From a virus, in UHGV virus genome UHGV-0275486: a DNA stretch of 10,219 bases. One strand, given 5' to 3'. The notes under the pieces are model-generated. The model searched no databases, was not told where the DNA came from, and saw only the letters and a list, made by a program, of their open reading frames with translations. The position numbers and the translations under genes were made by a program. Shown one piece after another: positions 2,017 through 3,165 of this stretch (the stretch's first letter is position 1; each line of letters starts with the position of its first letter).

Positions 2017-2099
2017 TTTTTTACGCATAAATTGCTTCAATTCCGGTATGCTTCGCAAAGCTGTATCGCGAGGCGAACCAAGCGCATGAACTTTACCAG

Positions 2100-2128
2100 A
2101 ACCCGCCATTGAGCGGGTTTTGTTGTTT
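2100..2128 (+). terminator. intrinsic terminator downstream of Q (candidate tR-prime-like element)
   Basis: 7-bp stem AACCCGC/GCGGGTT (2100-2106 and 2113-2119) with 6-nt loop CATTGA, followed directly by TTGTTGTTT. Confidence 0.5.
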
Positions 2129-2193
2129 CTGGGGGGGCATTTCGTTAAATGAAGCTGTGTTGTGCGCAATTAGCTAATAACACGAATCGTGAA

Positions 2194-2203
2194 TGTATAT
2201 AAT
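2194..2203 (+). promoter_or_regulatory. candidate -10 element (TG-TA-TATAAT) upstream of the tRNA pair
   Basis: Perfect TATAAT at 2198-2203 with TG at 2194-2195. No good -35 hexamer at 16-18 bp spacing, so this is a weak call. Confidence 0.2.
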
Positions 2204-2325
2204 GCGCTTGTTCCTTCGATGGTGTATTCGAATAACGGATTACTGAATACAGCTATCCCATTAAGGGAACACCGCCATCTTTTAAGTGGTAGGTGTGAGA
2301 TTCGATACCTCGGTGGCGGTTCTGT

Positions 2326-2401
2326 GCCGACTTAGCTCAGTAGGTAGAGCAACTGACTTGTAATCAGTAGGTCACCAGTTCGATTCCGGTAGTCGGCACC
2401 A
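2326..2401 (+). tRNA. tRNA-Thr (anticodon UGU), CCA encoded
   Basis: Folded by hand: acceptor GCCGACT/AGTCGGC, D-arm GCTC-AGTAGGTA-GAGC, anticodon stem ACTGA/TCAGT with loop CTTGTAA (U33, anticodon TGT, A37), 5-nt variable loop, T-loop TTCGATT, discriminator A, CCA. The T-stem ACCAG/CCGGT has one A-C mismatch. Confidence 0.85.
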
Positions 2402-2404
2402 TAT

Positions 2405-2479
2405 GCGGGTATCGTATAATGGTTATTACCTCAGCCTTCCAAGCTGATGATGCGGGTTCGATTCCCGCTACCCGCTCCA
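2405..2479 (+). tRNA. tRNA-Gly (anticodon UCC), glyT-like, CCA encoded
   Basis: Acceptor GCGGGTA/TACCCGC, anticodon stem TCAGC/GCTGA with loop CTTCCAA (anticodon TCC), T-arm GCGGG-TTCGATT-CCCGC, discriminator T, CCA. Nearly identical to E. coli glyT as recalled; the acceptor-stem change is compensated on both strands. Lies 3 nt after tRNA-Thr. Confidence 0.9.
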
Positions 2480-2754
2480 GCATTTGAAATAAGCCTTATT
2501 GTATTGCAGCACTGGCGTATTTTTATTACGTGGGAGCAGGTTGTTTCGAAAAAGCATTCTGTTCTCTGGCTATGATTTGAGGCCAGGTGTAGCCTCAGTG
2601 CTGATTTTTTTACGGCAGCAGAATGGTGCATTATCGGTGGAGATTTTGTATTTCCTGGCAGGGCCGGTGATGTGCCATCCCGATGTTGTAAACATCGCTA
2701 AAAATGACATTGAGATTAATCATATACTAAGCAAAACCTGGAAATACATCCTTT

Positions 2755-2780
2755 ACCGCCTCCACCGGGCGGTTTTTTTT
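2755..2780 (+). terminator. intrinsic terminator
   Basis: Stem ACCGCC (2755-2760) / GGCGGT (2768-2773) with loop TCCACCG, then a run of eight T (2773-2780). Confidence 0.55.
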
Positions 2781-3103
2781 ATTCTGAACCCTAAAAAAAG
2801 AAACACGGACACTGATAATGCCCGTGTGGCAATGCCATGTAAGTTAGCGATGAATATGGCGCAAAAAAAGCGCGGCCGTCGGATTAACGCCGCGGGACAA
2901 AGTCCATGAAGAATCATAAGTATTGGCCCCCTTCTGGGGACATGTTCATACTACTAAGCTTCAGAAGTGGTTTAAATCATCAAATTAACCTTAATTTTCG
3001 ATAAGTCTTATTTCATTTCTTTGCGCCACATCTGGCGCGCATCAAATAACGCCACGCAAAGGGCATCTGCGGATGCCGGTGCTTTTGACGGGGTGTTTTT
3101 TAC

Positions 3104-3125
3104 GGGCCGCTGGTGGCCATTTTTT
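3104..3125 (+). terminator. small intrinsic terminator-like hairpin just upstream of the holin gene
   Basis: GGCC(G)/(T)GGCC stem (3105-3109 with 3114-3118), 4-nt loop, then A and six T (3120-3125). It lies about 40 nt before the holin start and could alternatively be a structure regulating holin translation. Confidence 0.4.
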
Positions 3126-3165
3126 GTTTCCATTACACAGCGCCCGCATCTGCGAGGTGGGGGTT

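Follow-up and report, generated by a model that had tools for sequence, protein, structure and literature searches.

The stretch of DNA analysed here, referred to as the window, is 10,219 nucleotides long and comes from the virus genome UHGV-0275486. It represents the late part of an Escherichia coli prophage of the lambdoid, Rac-like type. This work concerns the 1.15-kb interval at positions 2017-3165, located between a Q-like late antiterminator gene and a class II holin gene, which is 100% identical in strain EcPNK006 (NZ_CP071436) and probably carries RNA genes instead of protein cargo. The features found in the interval and at its two borders are as follows.

1474-2016, plus strand: Q-like late antiterminator gene of the DUF1133 family, the left border, identified by profile matches
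2013-2041, plus strand: PR'-like promoter read from the sequence, with a -35 TTGATT (2013-2018), a 17-nt spacer, TG (2033-2034) and a -10 TTCAAT (2036-2041)
2045-2131, plus strand: leader made of a hairpin (2045-2079) and terminator T1 (tR'-like; stem 2097-2122, U-tract to ~2131), from folding and conservation
2198-2203, plus strand: TATAAT, -10 box of a candidate promoter of the tRNA unit with a weak -35, from conservation
~2246-2321, plus strand: tRNA-Lys(UUU) pseudogene, aligning to the intact tRNA-Lys of a Met-Lys-Thr-Gly array (related locus L013, 7270-7346)
2326-2401, plus strand: tRNA-Thr(UGU), called by ARAGORN and the Rfam tRNA model (73.8 bits)
2405-2479, plus strand: tRNA-Gly(UCC), called by ARAGORN and the Rfam tRNA model (67.8 bits)
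2508-2602, plus strand: four-way junction, the 5' domain of the trailer, with a 7-bp closing stem (2508-2514/2596-2602) around three hairpins, from folding and covariation
2609-2692, plus strand: long hairpin of the trailer, 34 pairs with the invariant tip GGUGGAGAUUUUGUAUUUCCUGGCAGGG, from folding and covariation
2755-2781, plus strand: terminator T2, closing the tRNA/trailer unit on its 3' side, with stem 2755-2773 followed by U8
2827-2793, minus strand: back-stop terminator, with stem 2827-2803 followed by a U-tract (-14.5 kcal/mol, z -4.8)
2946-2857, minus strand: candidate small RNA (sRNA) gene of ~80-90 nt, from covariance model R1 and covariation
2948-2976, minus strand: predicted promoter of the candidate sRNA, with a -35 TTTAAA (2976-2971), a 17-nt spacer, a -10 TAGTAT (2953-2948) and AT-rich sequence upstream, from conservation
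3023-3038, no strand assigned: perfect GC-rich palindrome GCGCCA-CATC-TGGCGC, from compensatory change
3045/3046, no strand assigned: mosaic junction at which relatives carry a TerB-family and DUF3927 cassette (~675 bp), from blast breakpoints and annotation (loci L009 and L012)
3046-3132, plus strand: pre-holin module with hairpins T3a and T3b, from 53 distinct versions
3166-3381, plus strand: class II holin gene, essD-like, the right border, identified by PF04971 (E 4.8e-35) and annotation

We identify the interval as the lambdoid PR' moron site, or cargo site, from the Q family matches and from the variable cargo between the same Q and the holin. The product of the Q-like gene matched DUF1133 (PF06576, E 1.7e-108), Phage_antitermQ (PF06530, 28.3 bits at a cut-off of 26) and PHROG 753, 'anti-termination protein Q-like' (3.6e-79); a direct match to the solved Q21 structure was weak (E 0.26). 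The homologue in Rac-SA53 is annotated as q. The DUF1133 Q family was present in 1761 of 5426 complete E. coli genomes (about one third), and we know of no biochemistry on a Q of this type. Comparison with related prophages revealed what occupies the site elsewhere. Among relatives with the same Q, the gap contains the pertussis-like toxin genes eplBA in Rac-SA53 and a 190-aa open reading frame (ORF) in vB_EcoS-666R9; an O157:H7 prophage has tRNA-Met with DUF6645, DUF1378 and DUF826 there, and another strain has TolA-like fragments; the same tRNA pair is found elsewhere with a different holin, and the TerB/DUF3927 cassette listed above is a further occupant. In blast searches against related loci the interval was a mosaic of modules with sharp breakpoints.

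The initial annotation had likened the interval to that of Shiga toxin (Stx) phages, in which the tRNA cluster ileZ-argN-argO is followed by stxAB. The comparison holds for the cargo site as such. In both cases rare-codon tRNA genes lie just downstream of PR'/tR' in a lambdoid late region, and relatives of the window carry toxin genes (eplBA) in the same gap. It is loose for this lineage, whose LT-II genes follow the endolysin gene and so lie outside the Q-holin gap; moreover, the tRNAs of the window are Thr(UGU) and Gly(UCC), copies of host tRNAs, and no toxin gene follows them.

Downstream of tRNA-Gly, the plus strand from about 2480 to 2781 encodes a candidate trailer RNA. The segment 2480-2785 folded with z -3.0. 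The four-way junction was the minimum-energy structure of each of ~40 variants folded individually, some of them ~50% diverged, and RNAalifold assigned to it 23 pairs, 6 with double changes. In a MAFFT alignment 96.3% of its cells were paired, compared with 30-48% when the structure was slid, and there were 28 double-change cells against 10.2 +/- 2.9 in shuffles. The long hairpin (-35.7 kcal/mol, z -4.3) behaved similarly: across 27 distinct homologues aligned with MAFFT, 98.3% of cells were paired, versus 33-56% when slid. Seventeen of its pairs vary on one side only, via G-U, and three show double changes (one of these reads A-U in 14 sequences, G-C in 10), while the 28-nt tip is invariant. 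The G-U changes are informative for a plus-strand RNA alone, because the pairing survives them only on that strand. The structure predicted for the trailer is thus supported by covariation and by changes that preserve G-U pairs, which bears out the suggestion in the initial annotation that 2480-2754 could encode an RNA.

Two alternative linkers follow the long hairpin, and each ends in an ACCGCC...GGCGGT terminator with U8. In the window this is T2, a strong terminator (-11.1 kcal/mol, z -3.0); in the alternative trailer type it is located at 4366-4385 of the relative L011. The trailer also keeps company with one tRNA. Of the 92 IMG/VR loci that carry the hairpin motif and could be evaluated, 91 have the end of tRNA-Gly(UCC) 100-260 nt ahead of the hairpin tip, and this linkage spans prophages with different Q and holin types. 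Like RNAs of the 3' external transcribed spacer (3'ETS) type, the trailer is located between the last tRNA and the operon terminator. No promoter hexamer pair with acceptable spacing was found for its 3' part (2690-2730). When ARAGORN was run at 60-70% thresholds, it made mutually inconsistent calls on both strands of the trailer, and a tRNA-like nature was rejected. The hairpin 2577-2598 with the T-run 2603-2609 appeared terminator-like in a scan and is probably no terminator: stem and U-tract are separated by a 6-nt spacer, and in the consensus fold the T-run is the base of the long hairpin.

The main alternative for the trailer is that it is a cis element of the late transcript, above all an RNase III site, or an RNase E site, which would separate the tRNAs from the lysis mRNA or set stability. 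Its uninterrupted helix of ~30 bp has the size of an RNase III substrate, it is in the path of the Q-dependent transcript, and neither a scan nor a reading of 2480-2730 found a promoter immediately upstream. Yet it ends in its own strong T2, kept in both trailer types, as expected of a unit that normally stops there, and the invariant apical 28 nt together with the four-way junction exceed what a cleavage site needs. We regard the cis element as unlikely, although the two readings are compatible. As a free RNA, the trailer would be co-transcribed with the tRNAs and released by their processing.

The opposite strand encodes a candidate sRNA. From 5' to 3' it consists of a 5' hairpin, a single-stranded segment CAAUACUUAUGAUUCUUC (~18 nt), a hairpin with the invariant GGACUUUGUCC, and a terminator CGCGGC..GCCGCG with U7, whose stem lies at 2897-2868 and which extends to 2862. 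Covariance model R1 scored the window copy at 103 bits and detected 71 copies in 77 loci; none was found in the PasA/PasC loci (L154, L155) or the O157 loci. In the alignment fitted to the model, 96.3% of cells were paired versus 39-53% when slid. Changes on both sides were seen in 8 of 17 pairs and amounted to 53 cells, against 16.6 +/- 4.6 in shuffles; they affect five of the six pairs of the 5' hairpin and three of the seven terminator pairs. The promoter is conserved as well, in that TTTAAACC-N15-TAGTAT/TAATAT/TATGAT aligned in 57 distinct versions including a chromosomal paralog. The U-tract is kept on the minus strand only. About 35 nt past the sRNA terminator lies the back-stop terminator, whose hairpin and U-tract are kept in relatives with different sequence. 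As far as sequence and structure show, the gene thus combines the features of the general class of Hfq-dependent trans-acting sRNAs: a predicted promoter of its own, a seed left single-stranded, and a U-tailed terminator hairpin.

A mini-ORF of seven codons lies inside the sRNA at 2909-2886 on the minus strand (AUG GAC UUU GUC CCG CGG NNU UAA, MDFVPR[R/S/L]). It ends in TAA in 67 of 69 copies, has no Shine-Dalgarno sequence, and its variable codon corresponds to covarying stem positions.

One might instead take the minus-strand unit as a DNA site bound by a protein or recombinase, or as the leftover promoter-terminator pair of a lost moron. The GGAC/GUCC helix and most of the terminator stem are invariant and hence uninformative on structure, and the conserved mini-ORF overlaps the unit. 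These observations are outweighed by the both-side changes in the 5' hairpin and the terminator, by a U-tract confined to the minus strand and by promoter hexamers at a fixed 17-nt spacing; the mini-ORF itself has no Shine-Dalgarno sequence and its variable codon is a covarying stem pair. We consider a DNA site or leftover pair quite improbable.

The candidate sRNA has an unannotated paralog on the E. coli chromosome. It was observed between serU and yodB, on the yodB strand, at 1498-1594 of L008, which is the E. coli K-12-derived strain AML001_par (NZ_CP062242.1), where R1 scored it at 70.8 bits. Its promoter reads TTTAAACC-N15-TATGAT, and it has the same terminator and the same invariant GGACUUUGUCC hairpin, whereas the 5' hairpin and the single-stranded segment differ from those of the window sRNA. 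The 46-bp core of the paralog was present in 5360 of 5426 complete E. coli genomes (~99%); its location was checked in two records (L001 and L008). In a scan of one genome per species, true paralog matches were restricted to Escherichia and Shigella, plus one contig of a metagenome-assembled genome (MAG). The latter, a 6-kb contig of a 'Bacillota bacterium' MAG (L168, JAEWTL010000060.1), carries a serU-type copy scoring 71 bits, the same as the Shigella flexneri copy, and is probably a contaminant contig from E. coli. Searching the K-12 serU-yodB region against Rfam at E<=5 gave no model for the paralog, and no paper in open-access full text matched the serU-yodB paralog or the conserved 16-20-mers of both RNAs.

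We tentatively suggest, at somewhat below even odds, that the interval contributes two undescribed RNA families: a trailer of tRNA-Gly(UCC), either 3'ETS-like or a small cousin of GOLLD/ROOL, and an antisense sRNA exchanged with the chromosome. If so, an sRNA gene has been swapped between prophage and chromosome, with the seed replaced on the same promoter/terminator scaffold. One version would now be fixed in the E. coli/Shigella chromosome beside the serU phage-integration site, and the phage version may act as its competitor or its mimic.

The absence of a convincing protein gene, claimed in the initial annotation, was confirmed. Ten ORFs of the interval had no match in Pfam or PHROGs, and the ORFs tested (2474-3032) showed no third-codon-position bias. 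Over 2598-2790 the variable sites at codon positions 1, 2 and 3 numbered 23, 11 and 20, and the other ORFs were similarly flat; in 9 of 13 homologues the length difference was not a multiple of 3. RefSeq/PGAP nevertheless places a hypothetical coding sequence (CDS) at 2598-2909 (WP_001741616.1), which crosses T2 and begins with a GTG just before a T-run that is T6, T7 or T8 across homologues. We take this CDS for a probable miscall that now recurs in many genomes. That it, or the small minus-strand ORFs annotated in vB_EcoS-683R6, is a real protein gene could be argued from the fact that both PGAP and phage depositors annotated CDSs here and that the ORF 2499-2909 comprises 136 codons. The lack of a Pfam or PHROG match, the flat codon positions, the non-triplet length differences, the variable T-run after the GTG and the crossing of T2 all speak against it, and in locus L010 the ORF runs on into unrelated sequence. 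A protein gene in the interval is therefore very improbable.

Upstream of the trailer, the tRNA-Thr/tRNA-Gly pair was found as the initial annotation had it, both members scoring above the Rfam gathering score of 29. The tRNA-Thr is 100% identical to a host chromosomal tRNA-Thr over 77 nt, and the pair as a whole is 98.1% identical to the host tRNA-Thr/tRNA-Tyr/tRNA-Gly cluster, with the tRNA-Tyr and the spacers missing. The two tRNAs duplicate host isoacceptors reading ACA and GGA. These codons account for 27% of Thr and 21% of Gly codons in the window genes, and for 32% and 31% in trkG; both window values are above the E. coli averages of roughly 13-15% for ACA and 11% for GGA. In front of the pair lies the tRNA-Lys relic. 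ARAGORN called it (2256-2319) only at a relaxed threshold and not by default, no Rfam tRNA match was obtained at E<=10, and the CCA end and the T-loop consensus are lost. Related loci carry arrays of Met(CAU)-Lys(UUU)-Thr-Gly (n=12) or Thr-Gly (n=61), and the tRNA-Met of the fuller array is absent from the window. The pseudogene and the absent tRNA-Met represent real decay. The TATAAT at 2198-2203 may be a Q-independent promoter of the tRNA unit: its region, GTGAATGTnTATAATnCGCT, is kept in the second tRNA copy of phage SerU-LTIIb despite diverged flanks.

In that phage (L001, KU052038) the tRNA-trailer-holin module is tandemly duplicated, at 1121-2031 and 3028-3743, and the two copies differ in carrying tRNA-Arg(UCU)-Gly or Thr-Gly. 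It follows that the tRNA in front can be exchanged, with tRNA-Gly and the trailer staying together.

At the left end of the interval, the PR'-like promoter overlaps the Q stop codon. Its score was below the threshold of a promoter scan, so that it is sub-consensus though conserved: both hexamers are retained in relatives with differing Q 3' ends. The leader that follows folded at -35.9 kcal/mol (z -3.3) and T1, a strong terminator, at -16.1 kcal/mol (z -2.9). The 115-bp block that contains the hairpin and T1 is 98-99% identical in prophages L005 and L006, while the Q-plus-leader segment (1474-2125) is 94% identical overall in L005 and 85% in L006, which means that the leader is more conserved than Q itself. 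In more diverged relatives the leader sequence is replaced, and a hairpin and a T-run are kept at the same distance. Because the leader and T1 are conserved beyond Q and the hairpin and T-run persist in distant relatives, we read 2013-2131 as a putative Q-utilisation promoter with its first terminator, the promoter and the predicted start being taken from consensus.

A scan of 1900-3400 returned six terminator-like sites compared with 1.7 +/- 1.3 in shuffles. A hairpin followed by a U-tract was found at T1, T2, the minus-strand site 2827-2793 and the sRNA terminator. Of the three terminators in the initial annotation, T1 and T2 proved strong, whereas the third hairpin is really the pair T3a/T3b, with T3b weak here; the two minus-strand terminators (2827-2793 and 2897-2862) had been missed. 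T3a (3062-3077) has -11.9 kcal/mol and only U4. The pre-holin module occurs upstream of two unrelated holin types, and the changes in both of its hairpins keep G-U pairing on the plus strand. In the commoner type a GGGCC..GGCCC hairpin with U6 directly adjoins the holin Shine-Dalgarno sequence. The simplest reading of the module is an insulator, at which transcription from cargo promoters would stop and only Q-modified polymerase would pass. The GC-rich palindrome described in the initial annotation is indeed present at 3023-3038, ~75-95 bp upstream of the sRNA start. In relatives its pairing is kept by a compensatory change (GCGTC..GACGC); no U-tract follows it on either strand, and it could be an operator or a part of the pre-holin leader.

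Given this mixture of intact and decayed elements, one must ask whether the site is simply an empty, decaying cargo bay, in which everything apart from the two tRNAs is the neutral debris of lost morons and looks conserved owing to recent divergence. A tRNA-Lys reduced to a pseudogene and the lack of both tRNA-Met and the TerB/DUF3927 cassette would fit, as would the mosaic blast pattern with its sharp breakpoints, a T3b degraded to 4 bp, and the state of the prophage. What remains of the small-terminase gene (window 8708-9797) is a truncated copy joined to part of a tail-fibre gene, and the prophage lacks head and tail genes; because of this it is defective, like K-12 Rac. Several observations speak against debris, however. 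Diverged variants keep the helices of three RNA domains by compensatory and G-U changes, the sRNA promoter and terminator persist in the chromosomal paralog of ~99% of E. coli genomes around a different interior, and the trailer remains linked to tRNA-Gly in 91 of 92 loci across Q and holin types. We hold an empty bay to be unlikely. The initial annotation, which spoke of an 'empty or decayed cargo bay', was right about the cargo site and the decay but not about the emptiness, as non-coding sequence that is conserved or structured or bears promoter elements makes up ~60% of the interval, the minus-strand candidate sRNA gene, which it had not seen, included.

The reading that we prefer, with a probability of about 0.6, is that the PR' moron site is occupied by RNA genes in place of protein cargo, arranged in four units. 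In unit 1, PR' would overlap the end of Q with T1 ~50-85 nt later, and by analogy with lambda 6S RNA and StxS only a short leader RNA would be made when Q is absent. Unit 2 would be a tRNA operon, possibly with its own promoter, comprising the dead tRNA-Lys, tRNA-Thr, tRNA-Gly and a ~300-nt trailer up to T2; processing of the tRNAs would release the trailer as a stable RNA, in the manner of a 3'ETS, and this RNA may then be active. Unit 3 would be the convergent ~80-90 nt sRNA, with a sigma-70-type promoter and two tandem terminators facing T2. It may act in trans through its single-stranded segment and, because it is fully complementary to the late transcript, possibly also in cis on that transcript. 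Unit 4, the pre-holin hairpin/terminator module, would prevent transcripts begun at the cargo promoters from running into the lysis genes, and only Q-modified polymerase from PR' would read through T1, T2 and T3. The interval had been described as readable only under Q antitermination; this was not supported. Promoter-like elements belong to the tRNA unit and to the antisense sRNA gene as well, and on that view only read-through into the holin would need Q. We infer the expression, processing and function of all the interval RNAs from sequence.

Several points weigh against this preferred reading. The promoters and transcription starts are consensus readings only; the -10 of PR' lacks the usual A at position 2, and the tRNA-unit promoter has a poor -35. 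T3b (3105-3118 with U6) has only a 4-bp stem in the window (-7.5 kcal/mol, z -0.46). The alignment behind the sRNA pairing was fitted to the R1 model, which favours structure. The homologues are mostly E. coli prophages that are closely related in blocks, and part of the conservation is therefore recency. When the sRNA seed was searched for duplexes in 13 translation-start regions of the window, the best had -13.8 kcal/mol (shuffled mean -9.8, 1% tail -16.9), so that no trans target rose above background within the window. Lastly, since the prophage is defective, Q-dependent read-through may no longer matter in this strain.

The architecture itself is already known from other systems. In lambda, the PR'-6S RNA-tR' unit gives rise to a PR' transcript that is terminated early, and in Stx phages the StxS sRNA is reportedly another such transcript. 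The window likewise has a strong terminator less than ~100 nt from a putative promoter right behind Q, and by analogy passage through it would depend on Q. It differs in having no sequence similarity to them and a Q of the DUF1133 type, and the role of the short RNA is one that we purely infer. For the trailer, a parallel is offered by 3'ETS-leuZ, reportedly a sponge for sRNAs that is excised from the glyW-cysT-leuZ operon trailer. Both RNAs lie between the last tRNA of an operon and an intrinsic terminator, but 3'ETS-leuZ is ~50 nt long, whereas the trailer is ~300 nt, highly structured and phage-borne, and sponge activity is here only a candidate function. T4 species 1 and 2 are stable RNAs in a phage tRNA cluster, and GOLLD and ROOL are large tRNA-adjacent RNAs of prophages. 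Like the trailer, they are structured non-coding RNAs co-located and probably co-transcribed with phage tRNA genes; unlike it, GOLLD and ROOL are both much larger and come from a different host clade, and the trailer has no Rfam match to either. Homology of the trailer to 3'ETS-leuZ, to the T4 RNAs or to GOLLD and ROOL was not detected.

Convergent sRNA genes have been described at the PR' moron site of prophages of enterohaemorrhagic E. coli, namely AgvB/EcOnc01, AsxR/EcOnc02 and EcOnc27 (Tree et al. 2014, PMC4104026). The AgvB/AsxR system resembles the window in its site and in its convergent plus- and minus-strand small RNAs, each with an intrinsic terminator. Its RNAs are 51-60 nt long, compared with ~80-90 nt and ~200-300 nt here, and its plus-strand RNA trails a toxin gene, whereas that of the window trails tRNAs. 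The PasA/PasC sRNAs of enteropathogenic E. coli prophages, 84 nt in length, lie directly upstream of holin/lysozyme genes on the opposite strand, and TerB and tRNA genes are often found next to them (Pearl Mizrahi et al. 2021, PMC8550237; Zhu, Shabalina & Storz 2026, bioRxiv 10.64898/2026.05.13.724894). PasA is located at ~2421-2500 on the minus strand of L154 with the holin at 2714; the corresponding positions in the window are 2946-2857 on the minus strand and a holin from 3166. The window sRNA is thus similarly holin-adjacent, opposite in strand, close in size and equipped with a terminator and U-tract, but it belongs to a different sequence family, there being no blastn similarity and no R1 match. 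Identity with PasA or PasC was rejected, as blastn at word size 7 of the E2348/69 pasA/pasC regions against the window gave chance matches only.

Searches with the covariance models of Rfam 15 against 1900-3300 on both strands, at E<=10, passed only tRNAs, with no match to AgvB (RF02702) or AsxR (RF02703), and only tRNAs passed in the relative L011 at E<=1. Hits to CyaR (23.6 bits), mir-983, STnc240 and STnc370 were far below thresholds and were dismissed as hairpin/terminator look-alikes. Such models thus recovered no named non-coding RNA beyond the tRNAs, but R1 does find the minus-strand sRNA. As judged by covariance model and blast, the two candidate RNA families match no named family.

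The interval is embedded in a recognisable late region. On its 5' side the gene order is DUF1367 (588-1187), a YbcO-like nuclease gene (1187-1477) and the DUF1133 Q-like gene (1474-2016). On its 3' side follow the class II holin gene (3166-3381), ydfR (3386-3730), a 90-aa minus-strand ORF, a lysozyme gene (4074-4607), Rz, trkG, the ParB-like ynaK and further genes. The 90-aa ORF (window 3696-3968), hypothetical in RefSeq, is located between ydfR and the lysozyme gene, overlaps the 3' end of ydfR and has no Pfam match. After Rz, trkG (5188-6663) stands out with a GC content of 0.38 against ~0.5 in its neighbours and with frequent ACA and GGA codons. The LT-II enterotoxin genes of Rac-SA53 and SerU-LTIIb lie after the endolysin gene at the position corresponding to trkG, and this phage lineage thus seems to have a second cargo site there.

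Lambdoid prophages use the stretch from Q to the lysis genes to carry Shiga toxin and pertussis-like toxins, as well as regulatory sRNAs by which host networks are rewired. The present analysis cautions against treating moron sites without protein genes as junk, or annotating spurious ORFs in them such as the RefSeq CDS at 2598-2909. Two candidate RNA families, well supported by comparison and present in hundreds of E. coli prophages, are added, and so is an sRNA-like gene next to serU that lacks annotation and occurs in nearly all E. coli genomes, K-12 included. A picture also emerges in which a terminator module, found together with different holins, possibly shields the lysis genes from the cargo promoters.

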